Source: a virus
Taxonomy: Duplodnaviria > Heunggongvirae > Uroviricota > Caudoviricetes
Direction: 5' to 3' (one strand)
IMG/VR virus record: IMGVR_UViG_3300021255_002784
Coordinates: 24,416 to 88,415 of that record
DNA: 64,000 bases
Shown here: positions 8,743 through 61,310 of the stretch, piece by piece
Numbering within the stretch: the first letter of the stretch is position 1
Layout: each line of letters begins with the position of its first letter
Notes under the pieces: generated by a model
Database searches by the model: none
What the model was told of the DNA's origin: nothing
What the model saw: the letters and a program-made list of their open reading frames with translations, nothing else
Position numbers and translations under genes: made by a program

Positions 8743-10317
8743 ATGAGAAAAGTGATAAAACGAGACGGATCCAAGGAGATCTTCAATTTTAGTAAGATAT
8801 ACAATGCTGTTGATGCTGCATTCGTACACTGTAATCGAACGATGCCTGAAGGTTTCAAATCTGCATTGGAGAGTACATTCAAAAACGAGAACCCCCGCGA
8901 CATAAATGGTAAACTCCTTCCACTGACGGTAGAGTCTATTCAGGATCGAGTCCAGAACCTGCTGTTCAAACACGGATATCAAGATGTATATAACGAGTAC
9001 CTTATATATCGATATGAGCACAAGGTGACACGTGAATACGTCAAGTCCCAACGGGATTTCATCGACAGGTACATCCAATCAGATAACAATGCCAACGCCA
9101 CTATAGACGACAATTCTAATGTGGCCAGTAAAAACATAGGTACACTCAATAGTGAGATCCATAAACCATGGAACATCAAAATCTCTCGGGGCATGGTTAT
9201 GGACATGCTCAAGATACTGTATCCGGACTTCGATCACAAACAGTACATCAGGGATCTGGCCCATCATATAATATATAAACATGACGAGTCTACTTATGCC
9301 GGGCCTATCGCACCGTACTGTTGTAGTATTTCTATGTATCCATTTATTACTGGTGGTATCAAACATATCGGTGGTCTGTCAGCCTGCCCGCACAGTCTGA
9401 TGTCTTTCTGTGGTATATATATCAATCTGATATTCGCCATCAGTGGTCAGTTTGCAGGCGCTGTAGCTACGTCAGAGTTCTTCGTATACTTCGATTATTT
9501 CGCCCGAAAAGAATGGGGTGACGATTATTATAAGCGCACAGACGAACTCGTTGGAAAACGCACTTTACACAAGCTTATTCACCAGTATTTTCAACAGGTG
9601 GTGTACAGTATCAACCAGCCCGCAGCAGCACGAGGTATGCAGAGTGCTTTTGTGAACTTCTCATACTTCGACAAACCATTCTTTGATGGTATGTTTGGCA
9701 ACTTCATGTTCCCGGACGGAACCAAAGCATGCTGGGAGAGTGTTAACTGGCTACAACGCGATTTTATGCAGTGGTTCAATGAAGAGCGCTTACGCTGTAT
9801 GTTAACGTTCCCTGTAGAGTCTTTTGCTCTGGTATACAAGGACGGACACTTCGTGGATCAGGACAGCGCGGATTTCGTAGCGGCTGAGTATGCTCGAGGT
9901 CATTCCTTCTTTACGTACATATCTGATTCGGTGGATTCACTTTCTTCGTGTTGTTTTAATGGGGATGAAATTATCAAAATTAAAGATAAAAACGGTAATA
10001 ATTTTTCCACATCAATATCGGATTTTGTCAATTCAATAAGTTCTTCAGTTTGCCCATCAGGGAAAAAGATTGGGGAAAAAACATATTTTATAGATTCTTT
10101 TAATAAAAATGGTGGTTGCAAAGAGGTTCAGATTACGGGGGTTTTGAAAAAACAATACTGTGGCAAAATGTATAAGATTTGCGTGGATGAAAATAAATAC
10201 ATCACAGTAACACCAGACCATATTTTAATGGTGAGAAATCGAAAGGGGAATATTCTTTCCCTCCCTGCAGAAGATGTTGTAAGAAACCCAGATGACTATG
10301 AACTTGTTGTGGATTGA
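8743..10317 (+). CDS. nrdD: anaerobic ribonucleoside-triphosphate reductase NrdD, N-terminal fragment fused to the N-terminal half of an intein (IntN)
   Basis: ATP-cone at the N-terminus (MRKVIKRDGSKEIFNFSKIYNAVDAA); conserved NrdD SSCC(RL) motif split after the first Cys; from 9952 intein block A (CFNGDEIIKI) and block B (ITVTPDHILMV); stop after ~121 intein residues. Confidence 0.8.
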   Translation: MRKVIKRDGSKEIFNFSKIYNAVDAAFVHCNRTMPEGFKSALESTFKNENPRDINGKLLPLTVESIQDRVQNLLFKHGYQDVYNEYLIYRYEHKVTREYVKSQRDFIDRYIQSDNNANATIDDNSNVASKNIGTLNSEIHKPWNIKISRGMVMDMLKILYPDFDHKQYIRDLAHHIIYKHDESTYAGPIAPYCCSISMYPFITGGIKHIGGLSACPHSLMSFCGIYINLIFAISGQFAGAVATSEFFVYFDYFARKEWGDDYYKRTDELVGKRTLHKLIHQYFQQVVYSINQPAAARGMQSAFVNFSYFDKPFFDGMFGNFMFPDGTKACWESVNWLQRDFMQWFNEERLRCMLTFPVESFALVYKDGHFVDQDSADFVAAEYARGHSFFTYISDSVDSLSSCCFNGDEIIKIKDKNGNNFSTSISDFVNSISSSVCPSGKKIGEKTYFIDSFNKNGGCKEVQITGVLKKQYCGKMYKICVDENKYITVTPDHILMVRNRKGNILSLPAEDVVRNPDDYELVVD

Positions 10318-10358
10318 GTTTATCCAAAGAATAATTTATTATATTAAAAACCGATCAA

Positions 10359-11477
10359 ATGGAAGATTATTTAATTTGCCCAATATGTAGTTGTAAAAGT
10401 AAAAACCTAATATCACATATTAGAAGAACTCATGACAAAAATATAAAAAACAGAGTTGATTTTGAAAATAGATTTCCTGAATTAAAAGGTACAAAACTTC
10501 AGATATCTAGATACGATTTGTCAAAAGAATTTAAGTGTGAGTTTTGTGGAAAAATCTACCACAGATTGAATGACTTAAGAAACCATATTCGGCAAAATCA
10601 TCCGGATAAATACTTCAAAACAATACCTAACTTAAAAGCACCTCAACAAAAATGTCCTATATGCTCAAAACTGGTAGGAAACTTAAGACAACATGTTAAA
10701 GAATCTCATGATTTAGAATGGGAAGTATTTTGTAAAGAATATAATTGGGACGTTAATAAAGCAAAAATTATAACTGACGAGTACAGGAAAAAATTGTCGG
10801 AAAATAAAAAATTATATTATAGGAGTCCAGAAGGGTTGAAAAGAAGAAAGAAACAATCAGATTTCTGGAAAGAAAATAATCCAGTCTACAATCCAAAATG
10901 TTTAGAAAAATCAATGTTTACAAGAAGTTCAAATGGGCACCTACCAGTACGAAACCAGGATTGTAGAGGAATAAAAGTTAATTGTTTTGGAAAAACATTC
11001 AGAAGTTTTACCGAATTTAAGTTTTATATCTTGTGCAAAAAATACGGATTAAACATCAGATATGAACCAAACGATTATTGCGTCAAATGGTATTCAGAAG
11101 ATAAAAAATTTTATACTACATATCTCCCAGATTTCATCATAAATGAAAACGAACTGATCGAATTAAAACAAGACAAATATCAGGTTAAAAAATGTGTAAA
11201 TTTTGAGAAATACATAAAAGTTTCAGAAGCATATAAAAAATTAAATGTTAATTTTAAGATAGTTGATCCTATTGAATTTTTCAAAGAAAGGGGCGTAATT
11301 TTAGATTTTGAAGATAAACAGTACATTAAAGATAATATATTAAATTTGTATGATAAAAACGCTATACGAATAATAACCCCGTATAAAGAATCTTCCGAAT
11401 TAAGAGATCTTTTCGAAACGGACAATTTATCGAACATTTCTTGCATAACATTCACCAAAAATGCTAAAAAATCATAA
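10359..11477 (+). CDS. free-standing homing endonuclease (C2H2 zinc fingers + PD-(D/E)xK/Vsr-like domain) located between the IntN and IntC genes
   Basis: three CxxC...HxxxH fingers (CPICSCKSKNLISHIRRTHD, CEFCGKIYHRLNDLRNHIRQNHPD, CPICSKLVGNLRQHVKESHD); C-terminal YLPDFII...ELIELK nuclease-like motif; own ATG after a frame-0 stop, different frame from flanking ORFs. Confidence 0.6.
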   Translation: MEDYLICPICSCKSKNLISHIRRTHDKNIKNRVDFENRFPELKGTKLQISRYDLSKEFKCEFCGKIYHRLNDLRNHIRQNHPDKYFKTIPNLKAPQQKCPICSKLVGNLRQHVKESHDLEWEVFCKEYNWDVNKAKIITDEYRKKLSENKKLYYRSPEGLKRRKKQSDFWKENNPVYNPKCLEKSMFTRSSNGHLPVRNQDCRGIKVNCFGKTFRSFTEFKFYILCKKYGLNIRYEPNDYCVKWYSEDKKFYTTYLPDFIINENELIELKQDKYQVKKCVNFEKYIKVSEAYKKLNVNFKIVDPIEFFKERGVILDFEDKQYIKDNILNLYDKNAIRIITPYKESSELRDLFETDNLSNISCITFTKNAKKS

Positions 11478-12582
11478 TATGAAATATTGCAAAATTTATA
11501 AAATAGAGACTATAACTGTTGACCAACCAGTATATGATATAGAATTGGCAGAAAATCATTATTTTTCCGCCAATGGTATAATCACACATAATTGCAGGCT
11601 CAAGAACAAGGTGCAAACCAAAGAGTTCAATTTCACCAATGGTAATATGGGCGTCATGACTGGTAGCAAGTCAGTCATCACTCTGAATCTGAACCGTATT
11701 ATCCAAGACAGTTATAATGAGTGGTGTAAGATCTTCTCTAATGGTACACCTGACGAACTGAAAGAGACGTTCAAAGAAGACTACAGTGTTCTTTGCAACA
11801 GTCTCCAACAAGTACTCGAAAGAGTATATAAGTATCACACCGCCTACAACGAGAGCCTCTGGCGTATGTACGATGCACATATGTTACCTGTATATAGAGC
11901 AGGATTCATATCACTGGACAAGCAGTACCTGACTATCGGCATCAATGGTCTGAACGAAGCCGCTGAGTTCCTTGGTATATCCATCAATGACAACCCCGAG
12001 TATTCGAAGTTCTGTCAGACGGTGTTTAGCTGTATCAAAGATATGAACACCTCACACAACGGTAAGTTTAACGGACATAAACTGACATTCAATACCGAGT
12101 GTGTTCCTGCAGAATCGTTAGCTGCCAAGAACTACAACTGGGACAAGGCTGATGGATACTGGGTTCCTGAAGGACGTAATCTGTATGCATCTTATATATA
12201 TCTACCGTCTGACGAGAAAGTCAATCTGTTCGAGAAGATACGTATGCACGGTAAGAATTACATCGGCGACTACCTGGACGGAGGATCAGCAGCTCACCTC
12301 AACCTGGACAGTCACCTGAGTAAAGCCCAGTACGAGAAAGTGCTTCAGTACGCAGCTGAACAAGGATGTCAGTACCTGACTTTCAATATACCGAACAGTG
12401 AGTGTGCCGACTGTGGATATATTACGAAAGTACCTATTGCTCAATGCCCGAAGTGTGGATCAGAACATATCTGGTACTACGACAGACCGATTGGATATAT
12501 AACCCGAATAGATCGCTGGGCAACAGCAAGACAGATCGAACAAAAAACAAGAGTATACGAACACATTCCATCGGATTGTTAA
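11461..12582 (+). CDS. nrdD: IntC (C-terminal intein part) fused to the NrdD C-terminal fragment
   Basis: intein blocks F/G (VYDIELAENHYFSANGIITHN) then +1 Cys resuming CRLKNK (completes SSC|CRL); C-terminal Zn-ribbon CADCGY...CPKCGS and glycyl-radical region RPIGYITRI. Confidence 0.8.
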   Translation: MLKNHNMKYCKIYKIETITVDQPVYDIELAENHYFSANGIITHNCRLKNKVQTKEFNFTNGNMGVMTGSKSVITLNLNRIIQDSYNEWCKIFSNGTPDELKETFKEDYSVLCNSLQQVLERVYKYHTAYNESLWRMYDAHMLPVYRAGFISLDKQYLTIGINGLNEAAEFLGISINDNPEYSKFCQTVFSCIKDMNTSHNGKFNGHKLTFNTECVPAESLAAKNYNWDKADGYWVPEGRNLYASYIYLPSDEKVNLFEKIRMHGKNYIGDYLDGGSAAHLNLDSHLSKAQYEKVLQYAAEQGCQYLTFNIPNSECADCGYITKVPIAQCPKCGSEHIWYYDRPIGYITRIDRWATARQIEQKTRVYEHIPSDC

Positions 12583-18749: not shown

Positions 18750-19254
18750 AGATACACATAGCCCAATGAAGGCATATCGTTTGAAACACATACCCACAGG
18801 TCTCTATTGGGTGAAAAAAAGCTACGGTCGTCTTTCTGATACAGGGACCTTGTTTACAACAGCTGCTAATTCGTTTAATGGATTAGGTCCTGATTCGAGT
18901 GTTCCTTTGTATATCTTACAGGACAAATTCATCCGTCAACACCTGGATGTATTTGAGAGAGTAGGTGAACTCGAAGAAATTCCTGAAACAGAATGGGATA
19001 TGAAAATCGGTAAATTTATCCCGACAGGTAAGTCGCACTTTCAATGGCACATGACATCTAAGGTATCGGATTTTGAGAAAGAATACGTGACCCTGGATCC
19101 CGAGGTACCAGAACCGCCTGTAAGCGAGAAGGATTCGGACCTTGTTGAGCAAGTAACACGTATCTGCTGGAACCAGATGTTTTCTATCTCAAAGGACTTG
19201 ATGCCTTACGAAGATCTATTGAAACGTGTTAAAAATCAATTGGATAAGAAATGA
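18739..19254 (+). CDS. hypothetical protein (~171 aa from the internal ATG)
   Basis: ORF; start chosen at MNNKDT after the upstream stop. Confidence 0.4.
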   Translation: MNNKDTHSPMKAYRLKHIPTGLYWVKKSYGRLSDTGTLFTTAANSFNGLGPDSSVPLYILQDKFIRQHLDVFERVGELEEIPETEWDMKIGKFIPTGKSHFQWHMTSKVSDFEKEYVTLDPEVPEPPVSEKDSDLVEQVTRICWNQMFSISKDLMPYEDLLKRVKNQLDKK

Positions 19255-19769
19255 AAGTCATTTTCCTGGACATAGATGGTGTGCTCAATTCAGAAGAATA
19301 CTTCAAACGCTGGCATGAGGAGAACCTAGGACAAAAAGGTCACGATCATTATGTAGATGAGATAGCTGTGGATAGACTGATGGACCTGATCCAGAAGACG
19401 GGTTGTTATATAATATTATCCTCTTCTTGGAGACGACACAACCTACCTGATACTATTTTATATCTATCCGAACACCGAAGTTTGGATAGGATACAACCTT
19501 ATCTGATTGGCATCACACCCCGTCTATGGCAGTACAGAGGTAGAGGTGACGAGATCAAACGTCTGATGAATGAATGGTCTGACTGGGTCAAGCGGGGTCT
19601 GATCAGCGAAAAATTCAAAGATGACAAGATCAATAACTACGTTATTCTGGATGATGATTCAGACATGCTGGATGAACAAAAAGAACATTTCATTCATACA
19701 AAGTGGGCAGTAGGGCTACAGGATTCTGATGTGGAGAAGTGCTTAAATATTTTGGGAGGAAATCACTAA
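19251..19769 (+). CDS. HAD-superfamily hydrolase-like protein
   Basis: N-terminal FLDIDGVLN (HAD motif I DxDGV); its stop codon lies inside the AATCACTAA repeat motif. Confidence 0.5.
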   Translation: MKVIFLDIDGVLNSEEYFKRWHEENLGQKGHDHYVDEIAVDRLMDLIQKTGCYIILSSSWRRHNLPDTILYLSEHRSLDRIQPYLIGITPRLWQYRGRGDEIKRLMNEWSDWVKRGLISEKFKDDKINNYVILDDDSDMLDEQKEHFIHTKWAVGLQDSDVEKCLNILGGNH

Positions 19770-19840
19770 CAAGGTCTTGAAAACCCTTGGGACTCCGTCA
19801 ACAAAGTCTTGAAAACCTTTGGGATTTCATTAAACATTTC
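19761..19840 (+). repeat. two tandem units of the intergenic repeat cassette + T-run + promoter box
   Basis: AATCACTAACAAGGTCTTGAAAACCCTTGGG...CAACAAAGTCTTGAAAACCTTTGGGATTTCATTAAAC then TTTTTTTCTTTTATATATACATAA. Confidence 0.7.
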
Positions 19841-21767: not shown

Positions 21768-21820
21768 AATTAAGAGGAAATCACTAAAGATTTCCTCTTT
21801 TTTCTTATATATATACATAA
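21768..21820 (+). promoter_or_regulatory. terminator hairpin with conserved ATCACTAAAGAT loop + promoter box
   Basis: GAGGAAATC-ACTAAA-GATTTCCTC hairpin, TTTTTT, then TTCTTATATATATACATAA. Confidence 0.65.
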
Positions 21821-24314: not shown

Positions 24315-24570
24315 GGGCGCTCCCGCAGGATAACAAACAAAAGCAGCAAAGACTCATCAAAAATCAATTCCATGGTAACAAAAGGGATATGTTCTATTTC
24401 ATTACCATGGACGGCGTTGCAAAGTTCTTTTATATGGTAGTCGAAGTTGGTTCCAGTGCTAAATCACACAAGCTTGTGAGTGAGTTCACCGAGATGGTAA
24501 CCTGTGATGGTGGATGGGATTGGACTATCATAAGATGCGAACGTTAATCCAGTCTCATAATTAAAAAATT

Positions 24571-24616
24571 CGAGAGAATCACTAAAGATTCTCTCGTTTT
24601 TCTTATATATACATAA
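24571..24616 (+). promoter_or_regulatory. terminator hairpin (loop ACTAAA) + promoter box
   Basis: GAGAGAATC-ACTAAA-GATTCTCTC, TTTTT, TCTTATATATACATAA. Confidence 0.65.
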
Positions 24617-28659: not shown

Positions 28660-28780
28660 TCGTAGAATCCACTATTTTTTTTACGTCGGAATCACTAACG
28701 AAGTCTTGAAAAAACCCGAGATTTCATTAAAGATTTCGGCGTTTTTTCTTATATATATTCATATTAGAGAAATAACATAT

Positions 28781-36582: not shown

Positions 36583-36657
36583 GACTCCGTAGCTCAGTTG
36601 GATGAGAGCAACGCACTTTTAATGCGTGGGTCCTGGGTTCAAGTCCCAGCGGGGTCA
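36583..36657 (+). tRNA. tRNA-Lys (TTT)
   Basis: canonical, loop CTTTTAA. Confidence 0.85.
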
Positions 36658-39404: not shown

Positions 39405-39878
39405 ATGAGAAAAGATTTAATTGGAAGAACCCAGGATATTCTTAAATGGGTTGCTGAAGGATGGTCATTTACAGAAATGTACAAGGAACTCGGTTGTTCC
39501 CGAGATGCACTTCATTATTTCTTGAAAACCAGAAAGATCGAATATAAAGGTAATCAGAGTAGAAAAGGGAGAAAAATAGATCCTAAAAGAAAAACGGCTC
39601 TTCAACTTATAGATGGAATTGAAAATGGGCTCAGTATCGGTAATTCTACATTAAGGGACAGACTCATCCAAGACAAGCTCAAAGAATATAAGTGTGAAGT
39701 ATGTGGGGCGAATGAATGGTTCGGAAAACCCATACCGTTAGAGTTGCATCACAAGGATTTCAATCATCACAACTCTAAATTAGAAAATCTTCAAATACTA
39801 TGTCCAAATTGCCACGCATATATTCATAAATACAATATAATCACTCCTATGTTGGAAATGGTAGACAGGCCAGACTAA
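39405..39878 (+). CDS. HNH homing endonuclease (HTH + HNH) inserted in the tRNA array
   Basis: C-terminal HNH motif CEVCGANEW...LELHHKDFNHHNSKLENLQILCPNCH; the last 9 codons are encoded by a duplicated tRNA 5' half. Confidence 0.7.
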   Translation: MRKDLIGRTQDILKWVAEGWSFTEMYKELGCSRDALHYFLKTRKIEYKGNQSRKGRKIDPKRKTALQLIDGIENGLSIGNSTLRDRLIQDKLKEYKCEVCGANEWFGKPIPLELHHKDFNHHNSKLENLQILCPNCHAYIHKYNIITPMLEMVDRPD

Positions 39879-39923
39879 GGAGTTGGTGTCTTTGACGTGA
39901 GGGTTCGAGTCCCTCTTTGGGCA
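39844..39923 (+). pseudogene. chimeric/pseudo tRNA (5' half copied from the 39265 tRNA, 3' half from a different type-II tRNA)
   Basis: 33-nt near-identity to the 39265 tRNA up to the anticodon loop, then divergent 3' half with compensatory T-stem (GAGGG/CCCTC) and acceptor 3' TTTGGGC that cannot pair with the 5' end. Confidence 0.5.
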
Positions 39924-40286
39924 CAGGTCTTTGACATATTGATACCGCAAGAAAAGAATAAGTTCAAAGATTCAACACGTTTTTATGCGATTGAGTAGGC
40001 AGTTGGAATAATAAGCGTCATAAGATGAGGGAGTCGACGTTGAAATCGAATTGTTACCAGAGCAGCACTTACTGGGAGTATTAACAAAGTCTTGAAAGCT
40101 TCGAGATTTCATTGATGAACATAGCCCGAAGTCAACAAAACGAGAACGATTCAACGGGTTCGAATCCGATGAATCCAACACAAACCGGATGGTGCAACCG
40201 GATAGTCACGGGATTGAAACTTACTGAGTATGTTCCGCTTCAGAGTACTTCGGAGAACCCCTATATCTTTTAAGCGGTATCTTTTT

Positions 40287-40638: not shown

Positions 40639-41032
40639 TATGAATTTCAAAACGATAACACATCGTCAATCATGGAAAGATGCTGAAAGTATCTATATCA
40701 TGGAGAGTACAGGCGGCGCAATGATCAGAATCACCAAATACACTGATAATGAAGCCTATCTGTTATCTGACTTGTACGTCAATCCGGTATTGAGAAAACG
40801 TGGACTGGGTACTCTGATGATTGAAAGTGCTATCAAGGAGTGTCGTACTCATGCGCAGCTGAATGACATTGAGCCATGTGTCGTTGAGATGGCAGTTAAT
40901 GATCATTCCGAGAAGTTCTGTGCTGAATGGTATCAACGAATGGGGTTCGTTCTTAATAGAAGTGAAGCACCGATCGATACAACATTCGACAATGAACTTG
41001 AGTGGTGTGATATCTATAGACTCGTTGTCTGA
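40639..41032 (+). CDS. GNAT-family N-acetyltransferase
   Basis: motif A-like VNPVLRKRGLGTLMIESAI; the ORF as listed starts inside tRNA-His, so the start was moved to MNFKT. Confidence 0.55.
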
Positions 41033-41040
41033 TGTTTACA

Positions 41041-41115
41041 AGACTCCGTAACGGAGTCCCGCTGCACGGTCTCCGTGACTGCGTTAATGAAATCCGGAGG
41101 CTTTCAAGACTCCGT
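41041..41115 (+). repeat. inverted copy of the intergenic repeat cassette plus a GC-rich hairpin sub-element, abutting a tRNA 5' end
   Basis: reverse complement reads CGGAGTCTTGAAAGCCTCCGGATTTCATTAACGCAGTCACGGAGACCGTGCAGCGGGACTCCGTTA; palindrome GACTCCGTAACGGAGTC. Confidence 0.6.
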
Positions 41116-41180
41116 AGCTCAGTGTATAGAGCAGCAGTTTTCTAAACTGCCGGTCCTGGGTTAGAGTCCCAGCGGAGCCA
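41108..41180 (+). tRNA. tRNA-Arg (TCT) lacking G18G19 and C56
   Basis: loop TTTCTAA, D-loop AGTGTATA, T-loop TTAGAGT, A2.C71 mismatch; the first 15 nt are identical to tRNA-Lys. Confidence 0.6.
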
Positions 41181-41327
41181 CATTTTCTATTATTTTTTTC
41201 TTCATCAACGAAGTCCTGAAAAACTTTAGTTTTTTCACTAAATATTTTTCGTGTTTTCATATATTTATACATAACGCAGTCATAAATTCCTACGGGATTT
41301 CATTAACACTCAAAACAATATAGATAT

Positions 41328-41684
41328 ATGAAGCACATTCTTTGGATAGATGACCTGAGGGATCCACATTCTCCGAAGTGGAAAGAGTATCTCGATTATG
41401 CCGCAGAAGAGTTCTTAGATGTTCCTCTGAATGAGTGTACAGTAAGCTGGGCACGGAGCAAGAACGAGTTTATCCAGCATCTCATTCTTGAGACCTGGCC
41501 GGATCTAGTTTGTTTCGATCACGATCTCGGACTTGGTCCTACAGGGTACGACTGTGCCAAGTACTTAGTAGATATGTGCATGGAGACAGGCAATCCTCTT
41601 CCAGAGTTTGTATCCCAGTCGTCTAATCCAGTCGGGCGAGAAGACATCATTCGTTTACTTGAAAACTATAGGAAACACTTATAA
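41328..41684 (+). CDS. hypothetical protein (118 aa)
   Basis: ORF after a promoter box. Confidence 0.45.
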   Translation: MKHILWIDDLRDPHSPKWKEYLDYAAEEFLDVPLNECTVSWARSKNEFIQHLILETWPDLVCFDHDLGLGPTGYDCAKYLVDMCMETGNPLPEFVSQSSNPVGREDIIRLLENYRKHL

Positions 41685-41694
41685 TAACATTTCA

Positions 41695-42609
41695 ATGAAA
41701 AGACAAATCATTCTATTACAAGGACCGCCTCGAAGTGGTAAGACGACTTGGGCGAAAACACACTGGGACACAGCACCTCTAGATACCTACGTATATATGA
41801 TCAGCACCCACGACCTGAGCTGGAAGTCCACAGATAGGGGTTATATTATAAATACTCTGGACACTGTTCTAGAGACAGAGCGTAAAGCTATCATGGAGCG
41901 CCTCAGTTATTATGATAGAGACTGGGACATCATTGTCGACGCTTACAACGCCAATCCTAAGCGGGTTCAGGAGTTCGAAAAACTCGCGAACAAGATGGGT
42001 GCAGAATTGGTAATCAAGCAGTTCTATATTCCTTACTCTGAAAGTTACAAACGCAACAAAGAGGTTGGAGTCCATTCCAAAGAATACATTCCTCGGGACG
42101 TTTTGGCCGGGTTCTATGATACGTACTACCACGAATGGTACCGGGACGAGCTCACAGACAAGAGAGTCATCAGACAACCGGAACCTACTCTTCCTCCTTG
42201 CATCATCTGCGACCTGGATGCTACACTAGCCTTACATCAGGGACGGGAACCATTCGAATGGGACCGACTCCTGACTGACAAGATCGACCCTCGCTTGCGA
42301 GATCTGTTGAACTTCCATATGACGTCCGGCACCAAGGTGTTCTTTCTAACAGGTCGCACCCAACGCGCACGACTGGATACCTTGATGTGGTTGCAAAATC
42401 CGAAACAGGGTCTGTGTGATGGGTGGGAACTGATCACTCGCAGTCAAGGAGATTTCTCTTCGGGTGATGTATACAAACTCAAGATGTACGAGCAACTCAT
42501 ACAAGGCAAGTACAATGTACTGTGCGTCTTCGAAGACAGTAACAAGTGTGTGAAAATGTGGAGAGAACTCGGTCTCTTGACTTGCCAGGTAGCAAATTCA
42601 GAATACTAA
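41695..42609 (+). CDS. polynucleotide 5'-kinase/3'-phosphatase (T4 Pnk/PseT-like)
   Basis: N-terminal P-loop GPPRSGKTT kinase domain; C-terminal HAD phosphatase with IICDLDATLA (DxDxT). Confidence 0.65.
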   Translation: MKRQIILLQGPPRSGKTTWAKTHWDTAPLDTYVYMISTHDLSWKSTDRGYIINTLDTVLETERKAIMERLSYYDRDWDIIVDAYNANPKRVQEFEKLANKMGAELVIKQFYIPYSESYKRNKEVGVHSKEYIPRDVLAGFYDTYYHEWYRDELTDKRVIRQPEPTLPPCIICDLDATLALHQGREPFEWDRLLTDKIDPRLRDLLNFHMTSGTKVFFLTGRTQRARLDTLMWLQNPKQGLCDGWELITRSQGDFSSGDVYKLKMYEQLIQGKYNVLCVFEDSNKCVKMWRELGLLTCQVANSEY

Positions 42610-44215: not shown

Positions 44216-44288
44216 CCAGGACGCCTCTCTTTCACGGAGGAAACACGAGTTCGAATCTCGTTGGGGCTACTTGTGGGATGAGTAGCAG
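44216..44288 (+). tRNA. tRNA-Glu (TTC)
   Basis: loop CTTTCAC, canonical arms. Confidence 0.8.
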
Positions 44289-44290
44289 TG

Positions 44291-44397
44291 GTAACAAGGT
44301 CCTGAATGACCCTTGGGTCTTCGATAGCTCGCCAGGCTCATAACCTGAAGGTCGGTGGTTCGATCCCACCTCCCGCAACTACATTTTTAGAGGAGAC
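44291..44397 (+). tRNA. tRNA-Met (CAT)-like with a ~30-nt insertion in the D-arm region (or a pseudo-tRNA)
   Basis: 3' two-thirds resemble bacterial initiator/elongator Met (TAGCTCG-CCAGG-CTCATAA-CCTGA-AGGTC-GGTGG-TTCGATC-CCACC-TCCCGCA-A); the only complementary 5' acceptor (TGTGGGA) lies 107 nt upstream. Confidence 0.35.
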
Positions 44398-44407
44398 CTG
44401 TATGGTC

Positions 44408-44437
44408 TCCTTTTTTTAATGCAATCTCAAAGATACG
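44408..44437 (+). terminator. rho-independent terminator closing the tRNA array
   Basis: AGGAGACC-TGTAT-GGTCTCCT + TTTTTTT. Confidence 0.7.
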
Positions 44438-44976
44438 CAAGACTTTGTTATTATATATACATGAAGACACTGTATGAAAGCATACTGGATGCTGATACCA
44501 AAATAATGAACCGTGCTGATAAAAAAGCAGCGACATATCTGAAGCGAAAAAAGAAGATTGATCTTGTCCTGGATGCGTTTGAAGATTTGGTGATTGATTG
44601 GGGTCTCAAATTCTCACATGATGCGGATTTCGGTCCAAATCATAGTATAAATTCAAAAAAGACTATTGCTCGATACTTTAACAAACGTGGTAAAACTAAT
44701 GCCCTCAAACAAGAGTTTATGGATGGTTACCGTTTTTTGAAAGACAAATTCGTAAGCATCTGGGATGAATGTGCACCAGAGGAAAACCTGTTATTAAATG
44801 ATCCGAGTGCATCTTTTGTATTCAAAGGTCTAGGAATAAAGGTTTGGATCAGCTTGCAAATAATTGATTGGGGCGGATCGAAATCTACTTATAATCTTTT
44901 CCTTATGGCATGTTTTGACCAGAACGATAAGTATATCGAAGATGTCACCAATAAACTTATAAAGAAGATATCATGA
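44419..44976 (+). CDS. hypothetical protein (185 aa), paralog of the next gene
   Basis: shares N-terminus MKTLYESILD.DT with 44973..45464. Confidence 0.45.
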   Translation: MQSQRYARLCYYIYMKTLYESILDADTKIMNRADKKAATYLKRKKKIDLVLDAFEDLVIDWGLKFSHDADFGPNHSINSKKTIARYFNKRGKTNALKQEFMDGYRFLKDKFVSIWDECAPEENLLLNDPSASFVFKGLGIKVWISLQIIDWGGSKSTYNLFLMACFDQNDKYIEDVTNKLIKKIS

Positions 44977-54035: not shown

Positions 54036-54110
54036 TGAAATCATTAACGCAGTCTTGAAAATCTTTGATTTTCATTAAACATTTCCTCTTTTTTCATATA
54101 TTTATACATA
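54036..54110 (+). promoter_or_regulatory. repeat cassette + promoter box
   Basis: TCATTAACGCAGTCTTGAAAATCTTTGATTTTCATTAAACATTTCCTC-TTTTTT-CATATATTTATACATAA. Confidence 0.65.
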
Positions 54111-55257: not shown

Positions 55258-55281
55258 AATAAGGATTCCTCTAACAAAGTC

Positions 55282-55650
55282 TTGAAAACCTTTGGGATTT
55301 CATTAACGCAGCATCATAAAGGCTGCAATCCCCATCACTATGAACATTGGACGGACAACTATGACAAAGGTACTACCTGTATTAGAATGCCATATAAGTA
55401 TGCAGTAGAACTTATTTGTGATTGGATAGGTGCTGGTCGGGCCTACCAAGGTAAGAACTTTACTTATGCTGGCGAGTACGTGTACGTACATAGTAAACTC
55501 CAGACATCCAAGATGCATCCGGACACCAAGTTCTTCATTGATTTCATCTTTGAAAAGTTAGCGGAGTGTGAGGAGGATGGGATTAAAGAGGATTTTATAC
55601 TTTGCGAAAAGATCCTTAAAAAGACATACAACAAATTTAATTCTAAATAG
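55282..55650 (+). CDS. hypothetical protein (start uncertain; the annotated ATG lies inside a repeat cassette)
   Basis: ORF; His/Cys-containing N-terminus. Confidence 0.3.
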   Translation: MKTFGISLTQHHKGCNPHHYEHWTDNYDKGTTCIRMPYKYAVELICDWIGAGRAYQGKNFTYAGEYVYVHSKLQTSKMHPDTKFFIDFIFEKLAECEEDGIKEDFILCEKILKKTYNKFNSK

Positions 55651-56130: not shown

Positions 56131-56765
56131 TGATATGAAAAAAAGATTATACGCGGTACGTCATATCGCGAATTGCTAACGGACGCCGAGGTTATCTGAT
56201 AGAAAACTAATGAAAAAATCAAACGAACATGACCAATAAAGAACTGAAACGCTACGATTATATCTTAGCCAAGAAAGACGCAAACATTCTTTTGTCTTTG
56301 TCTGAACAGCAGTTCCTAATCCTACATAAGAAAGAGTATGAGGAGGTCTGGACACCAGGAAGAACTGTTGAATGAAGTTGATGCATCAATCCTTCGTAAG
56401 ATGTATCAATTGCCGGAGGACACCGATATGAATGATTTTCTTAAAGAACACAGACGTATCGTGCTTCGAAAAAAGTTCTCACATCTATTGATGGATGAAG
56501 AGAATATCCGGTTGAAACAATTGAAAAACTCTGATAAAAAATGAGTAGGCAAAAGTTTTTTCAGGCGACAAGGTCGTTCTTAAACGCCGTTGGCAAATCC
56601 TATACAACAGAATAGGCGACAGTGCCGGAACAGTTGTCGAAGCCGAGAAAGTATCTAGTCGATTGAAATATTGGATAGTGTTTGAAGGAAAGAATTTTTC
56701 CAAAAGTGCATACAGCTATCAATTGGATCTGGTTCTTTGTGACTATAATTAAAAAAAATATGGAG

Positions 56766-56905
56766 AAATCACTAACGCAGTCTTGAAAATCTTTGATTTT
56801 TATTAACAAAGTCATAAATTCCTTTGGAATTTCATTAACAAAGTCATAAATTCCTTTGGAATTTCATTAAATATTTCTCCATTTTTCATATATTTATATG
56901 TAGCA
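56766..56905 (+). repeat. repeat cassette with two tandem 32-bp AACAAAGTCATAAATTCCTTTGGAATTTCATT units + promoter box
   Basis: each unit carries a perfect AAATTCC-TTT-GGAATTT hairpin; followed by TTTTTCATATATTTATATG. Confidence 0.7.
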
Positions 56906-56920
56906 CAAAGATAATATACT

Positions 56921-57253
56921 ATGAACATTACCACATTCAAAAAAGGAGAGTCAGTCATTGCATATCCAAGTGATTCACGCAAACGTGTGATGCACTTGAC
57001 AGTCAAATCAGTCACGGATAAGTACGTTTCCTGCGTGGACAACGGGTCAAGCAAAGTGCATCGGTTCAACAACGATGGGAAGTGGTTTCACTGGTCTGAA
57101 TGGATGTCCTATCGTCTCTACCACGATATGAATGAGGTCCATAAGGAATATGAGAATGAACAACTCTTATTTCAGTTCCGAGAGGATGCTGATAGGAATT
57201 TGTTCACTCCTGACGAGATCAGAAAGTTTTACGAAATCCATAATGCACAATGA
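56921..57253 (+). CDS. hypothetical protein (110 aa)
   Basis: ORF. Confidence 0.45.
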   Translation: MNITTFKKGESVIAYPSDSRKRVMHLTVKSVTDKYVSCVDNGSSKVHRFNNDGKWFHWSEWMSYRLYHDMNEVHKEYENEQLLFQFREDADRNLFTPDEIRKFYEIHNAQ

Positions 57254-60192: not shown

Positions 60193-60442
60193 TATGGAAA
60201 CTCTTTCTGGACAATATATCACAGATACTATCCAAATGAAAGGCATCATGAGGATACTTAATAGCACAGGAACACCAGGACTGAAAGGTATATACATATC
60301 CGAAGATGGGAGACATGTCAGGTTTGATCTAAAAGATGAAGACGAATTCTAACAAGATAAAGGTGTCTCAAGTGGATATGGAGCACTTTCCTTACGAAAG
60401 TCTTAAGATAGATCCTTATTGGGACGATTTATATAACCCCAG

Positions 60443-60662
60443 AAATCACTAACGCAGTCGCGGAGACCGCGCAGCGGGACTCCGTTAACAAGGTCTTGAA
60501 AGTCCTTGGGATTTCATTAACAAAGTCTTGAAAGTCCTTGGGATTTCATTAACAAAGTCTTGAAAGTCCTTGGGATTTCATTAACAAAGTCTTGAAAGCC
60601 TTTGGAATTTCATCAACGAATGTCTTGAAAGAACCCCAGAATTTCATTAAAGATTTCTGGGG
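60443..60662 (+). repeat. five tandem 32-bp repeat units (AACAAAGTCTTGAAAGTCCTTGGGATTTCATT) ending in a terminator hairpin; preceded by a GC-rich hairpin sub-element
   Basis: units at 60487, 60519, 60551, 60583 and 60615 (the last two diverged); upstream CGCGG-AGA-CCGCG hairpin; terminal AACCCCAGAA...TTCTGGGGTT stem. Confidence 0.8.
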
Positions 60663-60701
60663 TTATTTATATTTTAATCATATTTCAAATAATTATATGA
60701 T

Positions 60702-61310
60702 ATGAACGGCAAGATATTCTATTTTATTCTTATTTTTATCTGGTTCTTTTTCATCACGACCTATATGGTTATGGGTCCACGGAACACAGAATCTCAAAAA
60801 CAACAAGTAGAAATCGCTCAAGACACGGTATCACTGGACTCACTCATATCAGAAGTTGATGCATACATTCAAACCATTGCACCTGGTTCAAATTTATCAG
60901 GTTGCGCCGTGGTAGATGCCTGTCTCAAACATAATATGGATATTGTGTTTGTATTGGCGCAAGGACAGAAAGAATCTCATTTTGGTACAGCCGGTGTAGC
61001 CCGAAAGACGAACTCGGTGTTCAATGTGATGTCTTATGACAATCGATCGGCTGACGAGATATTGACTCGAGGGCACGGTTACGCTCATCCGGATCAATCC
61101 GTAGAACCCTATATACATTTGATTCGTAATGACTATATGGTGGACGGTAAGACAGAGCAGGACCTGTTGACATGTTTCGTTAACAAGAACGGACATCGAT
61201 ACGCTAGCAATCCTCATTACGAAGAATCACTACAAAGATTATACAATAAGATAGATAGTACCACCAGGATATCTGAGTTGTACAGCAAATACTCTTATAA
61301 TTTTCACTAA
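60702..61310 (+). CDS. peptidoglycan hydrolase, N-acetylglucosaminidase (GH73/FlgJ-like) with N-terminal TM anchor
   Basis: VLAQGQKESHFGTAG...NSVFNV and RYASNPHYEESL resemble glucosaminidase-domain signatures; N-terminal TM. Confidence 0.55.
   Translation: MNGKIFYFILIFIWFFFITTYMVMGPRNTESQKQQVEIAQDTVSLDSLISEVDAYIQTIAPGSNLSGCAVVDACLKHNMDIVFVLAQGQKESHFGTAGVARKTNSVFNVMSYDNRSADEILTRGHGYAHPDQSVEPYIHLIRNDYMVDGKTEQDLLTCFVNKNGHRYASNPHYEESLQRLYNKIDSTTRISELYSKYSYNFH

Follow-up and report, generated by a model that had tools for sequence, protein, structure and literature searches.

We analyzed a stretch of 64,000 nucleotides (the window) from the genome of an uncultured rumen jumbo phage, and in particular its segment 41041-41115 (locus A), which runs into the 5' end of a gene for tRNA-Arg(TCT). 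We favor, with a probability of about 0.55, the reading in which locus A belongs to a clade-specific family of TA-bounded hairpin mini-repeats, which have inserted mostly into the loops of intergenic cassettes, and represents an inverted fragment of two units. The segment would then be made up of one standard and one GC-rich unit of the family, both inverted. The second copy of the GC-rich unit (the GC element) lies upstream of a glucosaminidase gene (locus B).

Orthologous sites in related phages

Most of the units sit in the loop of a conserved hairpin (the basal hairpin), between CAC-TA and TA-AAG. Diverged relatives of the window phage were gathered as contigs, numbered L001 and so on, via flanking proteins and DNA patterns, and they present this site in different states. 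At locus B, six contigs from four lineages (L014, L023/24, L025/26/27) have a plain covarying hairpin followed by a T-run. L042 and the independently assembled IMG/VR contig L043 have the GC element alone, flanked by TA on either side; in L043 the site reads CAC-TA-(36 nt)-TA-AAG, a perfect TA duplication when compared with the empty site CAC-TA-AAG. L012 (9938-9965) has a 10-nt palindromic remnant in the loop, TAACG-A-CCGTTA (ATTA-ACGACCG-TTA-AAG), which corresponds to the two ends of the GC element and resembles a footprint left by deletion or excision. The window has the GC element plus five units.

Other sites vary as well. Where the window has an array at 56773, L012 and L014 have the plain hairpin, and L014 has one diverged unit after the box instead. 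L013 lacks both the inverted element upstream of tRNA-Arg and the unit found in the window at 41272. Two single units occur in a 131-kb IMG/VR relative, each in a basal loop with TA at either end. Empty, filled and remnant states at orthologous sites show the units to be insertions that are polymorphic for presence and absence. TA flanks every loop insertion on both sides, as well as the insert in a tRNA gene described below; the unit junctions themselves read TAA(C/A), which leaves the cut point ambiguous. A trace of local recombination is seen in the array at locus B, where the hybrid last unit contains a duplicate of the local 5' arm.

The GC-rich element

An earlier sequence-only reading of the window had described two copies of a GC-rich hairpin in opposite orientation. 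Both exist, with boundaries a few bases away from those first given:

41049-41086, minus strand: GC element, copy A (TAACGCAGTC-ACGGAGACCGT-GCAGCGG-GACTCCGTTA), inverted with respect to all nearby genes
60450-60487, plus strand: GC element, copy B (TAACGCAGTC-GCGGAGACCGC-GCAGCGG-GACTCCGTTA), with the apical hairpin at 60459-60471
41065-41077: apical 5-bp hairpin of copy A (plus strand CACGG-TCT-CCGTG), in which an A-T pair takes the place of a G-C pair in copy B

The 34-nt pattern GCAGTCRCGGAGACCGYGCAGCGGGACTCCGTTA has exactly two exact matches in the window (41049-41082, minus; 60454-60487, plus), with 0 expected, since dinucleotide shuffles gave no match. Extended to its termini, the element measures 38 nt (36 nt plus TA) and is a near-palindrome (TAACGCAGTC-N18-GACTCCGTTA) whose terminal inverted repeats match at 9/10 positions. 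The two copies differ, as had been noticed, by a compensatory change in the stem: their only two differences (G/A and C/T) are the partners of one pair in cRCGG-aga-CCGYg. Additional genomes supplied a third and diverged copy from the L042/L043 lineage. It has in addition a G to A change in the triloop and a C to T change that gives a G·U pair. All four substitutions among the three distinct copies thus fall into the 11-nt apical hairpin and keep its pairing; by our estimate, (11/38)^4, the chance that all four would hit the apex if they were random over 38 nt is about 1%.

These four changes, together with covariation in the wider unit family, support the structural proposal in part, in that the hairpin is kept through change. 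This support is qualified in two ways, since the best fold differs from the proposed one and template switching can mimic compensatory change. On the GCAGTC strand, the minimum free energy (MFE) fold of both window copies is a longer, two-tier hairpin (RCGGAG/CUCCGU plus CCGY-GCA-GCGG; -15.4 and -15.3 kcal/mol, z about -2.2), from which the originally proposed 5-bp hairpin is absent. On the transcribed plus strand of locus A, the MFE fold includes the 5-bp hairpin, and the flanking ACGGAGUC is sequestered by the upstream GACUCCGU. The double change between copies A and B is compatible with both folds; the L042/L043 changes leave the 5-bp hairpin intact, whereas the two-tier fold drops one pair (A·C). 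In its context, the L042 element folds into a single long hairpin, in which basal stem, termini of the element and apex form one stack (-32.5 kcal/mol, z -6.1). A palindrome inserted into the loop is therefore predicted to lengthen the terminator-type hairpin, not to destroy it.

Comparison with the other repeats shows the GC element to be a GC-rich subtype of the ~32-nt hairpin units. Its termini are the same as theirs, and the family hairpin is kept via three double substitutions (UA to CG, AU to GC and AU to GC). The unit structure is common to both types but the core sequence is not.

The family of ~32-nt units

About 22 units are found in the window by nhmmer. All are intergenic; 19 lie on the plus (coding) strand and three are inverted. 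They are located at 19767-19834 (two units), 28696, 29315, 40082, 41083 (minus), 41207 (degenerate), 41272, 44292, 44415 (minus), 54045, 55272, 56773-56871 (three units) and 60486-60652 (five units). The consensus is TAAC-AAAGTCTTGAAAGTCCTTGGGATTTCAT-TAAC, and units begin with TAAC(R)(M)AGTC. A chance match was rejected on the basis of shuffles, for the unit family as for the GC pattern. The orientation bias (19/22 units) extends to 10/12 loci (p 0.04). Relatives have 0-1 unit per stretch of 4-20 kb, compared to at least 22 in 64 kb here; the units are common to the clade and have been greatly amplified in the lineage of the window.

Covariation was assessed in an alignment (A2) of 20 distinct units. 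In the inner hairpin (TTGAAA…/…TTTCAT), 5/8 pairs change on both sides. The covariation score of the family hairpin is 0.304 as against 0.169±0.022 for shuffled alignments, none of which (0/500) reached it, and slid controls all stayed at or below 0.152. End-to-end pairing of the termini of standard units, whose terminal repeats match at 7/10 positions, showed no covariation in the same kind of comparison (103/500 shuffles were equally good). There was no excess of G·U over A·C in the family hairpin (9 vs 12); the data therefore do not tell RNA and DNA apart as the selected form. Rfam found only tRNAs at its gathering threshold and nothing meaningful at 41033-41107 and 60300-60750 under permissive thresholds.

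Three of the units are accompanied by further peculiarities. The TTG start at 55282 that was called for a DUF5662 gene (55282-55650) falls within the unit 55272-55307, and the true start is probably the ATG near 55340. The unit 40082-40113 lies in a 360-nt stretch between two tRNAs (39980-40280), where fragments resembling tRNAs (e.g., GGTTCGAATCC at ~40158) may be what is left of a further tRNA gene. The inverted, diverged unit 44415-44450 (minus) is placed between a strong terminator (AGGAGACC-TGTAT-GGTCTCCT-T7, 44391-44416) and a box directly before the ATG at 44461; its hairpin has a compensatory A-T to C-G change.

Two other identities were considered for the repeats and rejected, a CRISPR-like array because there are no spacers, and a single replication origin because arrays are found at many loci.

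The terminator-type hairpin and the promoter-like box

Many intergenic regions of the window contain, in this order, the basal hairpin, a T-run, a box of the type (C)ATATATTTATA(C/T), and an ATG ~20 nt further on. The basal hairpin has a variable base and an invariant apex (…GAAATC-ACTAAA-GATTTC…). Its consensus fold, derived from orthologues and paralogues, has 11 pairs, 7 of them with compensatory changes, and is followed by the T-run, which is why we call it terminator-type; it is predicted to be such a hairpin joined to a promoter-like motif. The combination expected of an intrinsic terminator, a stable hairpin with an immediate U-run at the end of a transcription unit, is predicted for the basal hairpin only. 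Plain cassettes without a unit are present at 21772-21816 and 24570-24610. The box occurs at 16 sites in the window (e.g., 21804-21816, 41258-41270, 54095-54107 and 56887-56899), with a T-run before it, and is probably a real promoter element of phage or host. A 469-aa protein with a weak Sigma70_r2 match is encoded just beyond the window (L040 483-1892, minus strand).

Cassettes and the units associated with them include the following:

19767-19834, plus strand: two units in a basal hairpin loop, the first ending in GGGACTCCGTCAAC, a chimera of standard 5' arm and GC-type 3' arm
28696-28731, plus strand: single unit in a basal hairpin loop; the orthologous L001 unit has a different core
41272-41307, plus strand: standard unit that separates the promoter-like box (41258-41270) from the ATG at 41328
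54045-54080, plus strand: single unit in a basal hairpin loop, followed by T-run and box
56773-56871, plus strand: three units in the loop of the basal hairpin GGAGAAAT/ATTTCTCC
60435-60447, plus strand: basal hairpin of locus B, 5' arm (AACCCCAGAAATC)
60486-60617, plus strand: four tandem standard 32-nt units
60618-60652, plus strand: hybrid last unit, with a second copy of the local 5' arm (AACCCCAGAATTTC, 60632-60645)
60652-60669, plus strand: basal hairpin of locus B, 3' arm (GATTTCTGGGG) with T-rich tail

Folding leaves the basal stem paired around the whole arrays (56755-56890, z -3.6; 60430-60672, z -5.2), and the whole cassette at 28684-28750 forms one long hairpin (z -4.9).

Directly downstream of the three-unit array, the gene at 56921-57253 codes for a protein of 110 aa whose Phage_ProQ_C_like domain scores 30.4 bits (cutoff 27). 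As ProQ-type proteins bind terminator hairpins, this protein is, by analogy, a candidate binder of the conserved hairpin apex.

The junction with tRNA-Arg(TCT)

At locus A, the GC element and an inverted unit run directly into the tRNA gene, as the sequence-only reading had recognized. The features of the junction are:

41039-41050, plus strand: left copy of a 12-nt exact direct repeat (CAAGACTCCGTA); in the wider comparison of 41031-41050 with 41097-41116, 17/20 positions are identical
41042-41058, plus strand: perfect 7-bp hairpin GACTCCG-TAA-CGGAGTC, in which the terminus of the GC element pairs with a copy of the tRNA 5' strand; part of the MFE fold of 41033-41107
41083-41115, minus strand: standard unit, inverted (ACGGAGTCTTGAAAGCCTCCGGATTTCATTAAC), with a 5' end reverse-complementary to that of the tRNA; nhmmer E 8e-8
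41105-41116, plus strand: right copy of the 12-nt direct repeat (CAAGACTCCGTA), including the first 9 nt of tRNA-Arg(TCT)
41108-41181, plus strand: tRNA-Arg(TCT), with an A2·C71 mismatch in the acceptor stem

The inverted unit overlaps the first 8 nt of the tRNA. The direct repeat has a period of 66 nt, which is the combined length of one unit and one GC element, and the position of its right copy places the first 9 nt of tRNA-Arg within the duplicated block.

The 5' end of tRNA-Arg(TCT) had been reported to share 15 nt with tRNA-Lys(TTT) at 36583, and the identity in fact extends over 16 nt. Since the two tRNAs are identical at 48/57 positions outside the anticodon arm, it reflects paralogy of the entire tRNAs. 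The acceptor stem of tRNA-Lys, which has the same 5' strand, is fully paired. L013 has a tRNA-Arg(TCT) of quite different sequence at the same site (640-714), with no repeat upstream. It appears from these comparisons that tRNA-Arg(TCT) has been replaced at this syntenic position, the window gene being a paralogue of the phage's own tRNA-Lys(TTT) and the L013 gene unrelated.

The 8-mer GACTCCGT occurs 8 times in the window vs 1.3 times expected, more often than the 5' 8-mer of any other tRNA. It equals the ordinary unit end GATTTCAT plus three transitions, each matched in the opposite arm (5/8 positions identical). As it can be derived from a unit end by matched transitions, it is not a piece of a tRNA. 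The element terminus may now supply the 5' strand of tRNA-Arg, or may have overwritten it.

A tRNA(CAT) gene with a unit-like insert

A tRNA(CAT) gene at 44271-44383 (plus strand) was missed by ARAGORN and at the Rfam gathering threshold. It is interrupted by the following feature:

44294-44326, plus strand: unit-like 33-nt insert in the D-loop, flanked by TA on both sides

Deletion of 29-36 nt in silico restores a tRNA-Met that is called. Infernal detects only the 3' two-thirds of the gene, and tRNA-Met genes of GenBank phages align only 3' of the insert. The similarity of the insert to the units is significant (0/20,000 shuffles or random 33-mers of the window reach its score). The syntenic relative L031 keeps the interrupted gene (1058-1168); the insert differs there by one substitution, and the stems are otherwise canonical. 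The insert must be old, because it is retained in L031 despite diverged flanks, and it is probably tolerated or functional, judging by this conservation. RNAfold predicts a cloverleaf with a long D-arm. The gene could encode a tRNA with an extra arm, could contain an intron-like insert, or could be a pseudogene.

Genes that may act on RNA are located elsewhere in the window. An RNA-repair gene with HAD_SAK_2 domain (19251-19769) has as its stop codon the TAA of the repeat leader at 19767, and a PNKP gene (kinase plus HAD phosphatase, 41608-42609) lies inside the tRNA cluster.

Weighing the readings

What we infer about the mechanism of spread and any RNA-level function of the units is the following. 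Repeats would insert at the TA of the basal hairpin loop, less often just after the box, and in one case in the D-loop of a tRNA. Once inserted, units would multiply locally to tandem arrays via slippage or unequal recombination. Upstream of the glucosaminidase gene, the GC element would be an old insertion into the terminator loop; another copy would later have been set, inverted, before tRNA-Arg(TCT), duplicating 12-17 nt and leaving the terminal GACTCCG(TA) of the element to serve as tRNA 5' strand. [quoted passage not shown] Their hairpin might be maintained by the need for spreading or tolerance, or by template-switch mutation.

Several observations weigh against this reading. The TA duplication is inseparable from the periodic TAA(C/A) junctions of the units, and insertions after the box do not have clean empty-site boundaries. 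No transposase, RAYT or Y1_Tnp, nor any other obvious mobilizing gene, was found among the proteins with Pfam or PHROG results, which cover ~80 kb, the remaining ~115 kb of the 197-kb contig and the host being outside the search. The elements are far below the size of any recognized MITE. The GC element is present in two independent lineages only, so that its own covariation evidence amounts to four substitutions. Finally, the coding-strand bias, and the conservation of the D-loop insert in a diverged relative, would equally suit a functional RNA element.

It is possible, though we would bet against it, that the units including the GC element are indeed functional cis-acting RNA modules. They could tune termination and read-through, protect 3' ends, or be binding or processing sites for a phage protein (a ProQ_C-like, RNA-repair or nuclease factor), with copy number setting the strength. 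Apart from the orientation bias and the tRNA(CAT) insert, the hairpin covariation, the closing of the basal stem around arrays and the ProQ_C-like gene above the Pfam threshold next to the three-unit array are all consistent with this idea. So is the invariance of the basal hairpin apex and loop across diverged phages, which suggests sequence-specific recognition. However, close relatives run the same genes with plain hairpins, so the units are dispensable at every compared site. Copy number differs wildly between sister lineages, three units are inverted, G·U is not in excess over A·C, and no Rfam family matches.

A doubtful explanation, which concerns the compensatory change rather than the repeats as such, is that it is a mutational artefact. 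Template switching or hairpin-templated repair would have copied one arm of the palindrome onto the other, with no selection for structure. The literature describes template-switch mutation in palindromes. The palindrome of the element is near-perfect and can pair in several alternative ways, a strand-specific G·U signal is missing, and locus A has other signs of fold-back and duplication (the GACTCCG-TAA-CGGAGTC hairpin and the 66-nt repeat). Yet the L042/L043 changes are single-sided (one giving G·U, one in the loop) and are not arm-copying, yet still confined to the apex, and the family-wide covariation spans several independent pair types.

A bolder version of the insertion reading strikes us as unlikely. 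It would make the units an undescribed class of ultra-small (~30-36 nt plus TA) mobile palindromes that aim at TA in single-stranded hairpin loops. The tRNA(CAT) D-loop insert would be the oldest, either an extra arm or an intron-like segment removed by the heal-and-seal enzymes of the phage (PNKP, HAD_SAK). At locus A, an element terminus would have regenerated the 5' strand of tRNA-Arg, and the structured leader, with its anti-acceptor and anti-anti-acceptor complementarity, could modulate processing.

Quite improbable, in our opinion, are binding sites for a phage regulator or replication protein on double-stranded DNA (operators, 'stoperators' or iterons), with the array at 60486-60650 as an iteron-type origin or regulatory cluster. 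Tandem 32-nt arrays (up to 5 copies, 93% matching), the conserved sequence blocks AGTCTTGAAA and ATTTCATTAA, and the location beside the promoter-like box would agree with such sites, and mycobacteriophage stoperators show an orientation bias as well. Compensatory changes in hairpin arms are nevertheless unexpected for a site that is read by sequence, the GC subtype keeps structure but not core sequence, and the arrays, spread over many loci, are missing from sister phages.

The suggestion that the repeat is tRNA-derived (SINE-like), or a 5'-processing signal of tRNA-Arg(TCT), is largely refuted for the family as a whole and retains very little probability: an element that abuts and overlaps a tRNA 5' end, GACTCCGT common to two tRNAs and the GC-type unit end, a unit within the tRNA(CAT) gene, and a leader with an 8-nt perfect complement of the acceptor 5' strand do favor it, but the likeness is limited to 8-9 nt (GACTCCGT(A)) that are close to an ordinary unit end, no Rfam tRNA match covers the units even at thresholds of E<=5-10, arms like those of a tRNA are missing from the unit alignment, 27/29 tRNAs are without any adjacent unit, most units lie far from tRNAs, within terminator loops that precede protein genes, paralogy explains the Arg/Lys identity, and the L013 tRNA-Arg(TCT) does without such a leader.

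Relation to known elements

By analogy, the nearest counterparts of the repeats are REP- or MITE-like elements nested in PeSL-like cassettes. The REP sequences and bacterial interspersed mosaic elements (BIMEs) of enterobacteria and pseudomonads, which are associated with RAYT Y1 transposases, resemble the units in being ~35-nt imperfect palindromes in extragenic positions just past stop codons. They also occur singly or in clusters, are transcribed as 3'-end hairpins and vary in copy number between lineages. With 32-38 nt, ~22 intergenic copies and a covarying hairpin, the phage units fall within the usual description of such palindromes (20-40 nt, extragenic, many copies). In contrast to REP sequences, which have a GTAG-type 5' tetranucleotide and a cognate RAYT, the phage units lack GTAG, and no RAYT was found in the ~80 kb with Pfam hits. 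They are also direct tandem repeats rather than inverted pairs, are nested in the loop of another conserved hairpin, and reside in a phage genome.

Correia elements (CREE) and other TA-duplicating MITEs share with the units the TA flanks, terminal inverted repeats in the case of the GC element (9/10), a non-coding intergenic location and presence/absence polymorphism, which we observed at locus B, the 56773 array, 41041-41115 and 41272; they, too, can carry or modify terminators and promoters. However, they are larger (Correia ~100-155 nt or more, MITEs generally 50-800 nt, as compared to 32-38 nt). The phage repeats further differ from them by the 7/10 match of the terminal repeats in standard units, by tandem amplification and by the lack of a partner transposase in the ~80 kb searched, so that neither the size nor the autonomous partner of a MITE is seen here.

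The PeSL cassettes of T4-like phages consist of a stem-loop and a promoter motif, are reiterated intergenically and are associated with indels (Arbiol 2010; Comeau 2014, PMC4122927). Their degraded or multiplied copies have been attributed to recombinational slippage (PMC4122927). The cassettes in the window are alike, as reiterated stem-loops with terminator features next to a conserved promoter motif in a T4-related phage. They differ in that PeSLs have a sigma70-like promoter (-35/N17/-10), whereas the box in the window is different and sigma70 sites are not enriched, and no counterpart of 32-nt units nested in the loop of the stem-loop has been described for PeSLs.

For the interrupted tRNA(CAT), Rickettsia palindromic elements (RPE) offer a parallel, since they insert into functional genes including RNA genes and do not necessarily inactivate them, but they are 100-150 nt long, belong to a bacterial genome and are mostly in frame in protein genes. 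tRNA introns (bacterial group I introns in the anticodon loop, archaeal bulge-helix-bulge (BHB) introns also at non-canonical sites) are likewise intervening sequences in otherwise canonical, conserved genes. The 33 nt of the insert are too short for group I, and a D-loop position in a bacterial virus is unsuited to BHB splicing; the insert may simply be an enlarged D-arm. Mycobacteriophage stoperators and the intergenic repeats of halovirus HF2 (PMC8707807) resemble the units in being short, orientation-biased and reiterated intergenically in a virus. They are, however, sites conserved in sequence, for protein binding or as promoters, and neither form covarying hairpins nor occur as insertion-polymorphic tandem units.

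Genome context and searches

The window corresponds to ~72-136 kb of the 197-kb contig ERZ12302814 NODE_40, to which it is identical; shorter contigs from JGI 3300002641, NCBI AUXO01 and SRR873598 are identical to it as well. Its genes include a T4-type portal, a split NrdD, DNA ligase, PNKP and several homing endonucleases, and portal, gp2 and gp13 are T4-like. The portals most similar to its own (32-42% identity) come from 'huge phages', phage PAU and the Prevotella Lak megaphages. A megablast search with an 8-kb query found no close relative among GenBank phages, and the array at locus B had no blastn match among them. Shine-Dalgarno sequences are absent before the start codons, as read off the sequence, and sigma70-type promoter sites are not enriched in the window (25 vs 30.4±5.3 expected); from these two features we infer a Bacteroidota-type host, and only as such.

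All 29 tRNA genes of the window lie on the plus strand, at 34.6-44.3 kb. A second tRNA-Pro(TGG) called by ARAGORN (39851-39924) overlaps the 3' end of an open reading frame for an HNH endonuclease (39405-39878); with 22.4 bits against the Rfam tRNA model, it is under the gathering threshold, and it is doubtful or degenerate. The split NrdD (8743-12582) has intein splicing-domain residues at the start of its second part, and an open reading frame for a 372-aa zinc-finger protein (10359-11477) in between.

Among independent samples with the same genes, L006-L011 are identical in sequence, with zero variation. Exact patterns for the GC element, the unit junction and the tRNA insert each had no match in IMG/VR, and a locus search there based on PNKP found none. 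In the metagenome pattern scan, L001 was the sole true relative and four other matches were due to chance. GTDB genomes had nothing for the GC core pattern and, for the unit pattern, 8 singletons in unrelated taxa, hence no sign of a host-borne unit family; the N10 spacer used in the metagenome and GTDB unit scans misses the commonest units, which have a 9-nt core, making these negatives weaker than they appear, and the scan with variable gap covered IMG/VR.

Significance

Interspersed palindromic repeats such as REP, MITE and Correia elements are well known in bacteria and hardly described in phages. Here, a phage clade shows a recent burst of elements that are below the recognized size of MITEs and reside in the loops of terminator-promoter cassettes. 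The sister genomes, with their empty, singly filled and remnant sites, provide a clean natural series for studying the origin and spread of mini-palindromes, their effects on intergenic regulation and on the order of genes in jumbo phages, and the maintenance of their hairpins by selection or by template switching. For annotation, such repeats account for missed tRNAs and mis-called starts (e.g., the TTG at 55282). The most surprising by-product is the unit in the D-loop of tRNA(CAT), near phage RNA-repair genes. If this tRNA is functional or spliced, it would represent a new organization of tRNA genes in bacterial viruses, and if intron-like excision by PNKP and HAD_SAK were true, it would link the RNA-repair genes of the phage to tRNA maturation.

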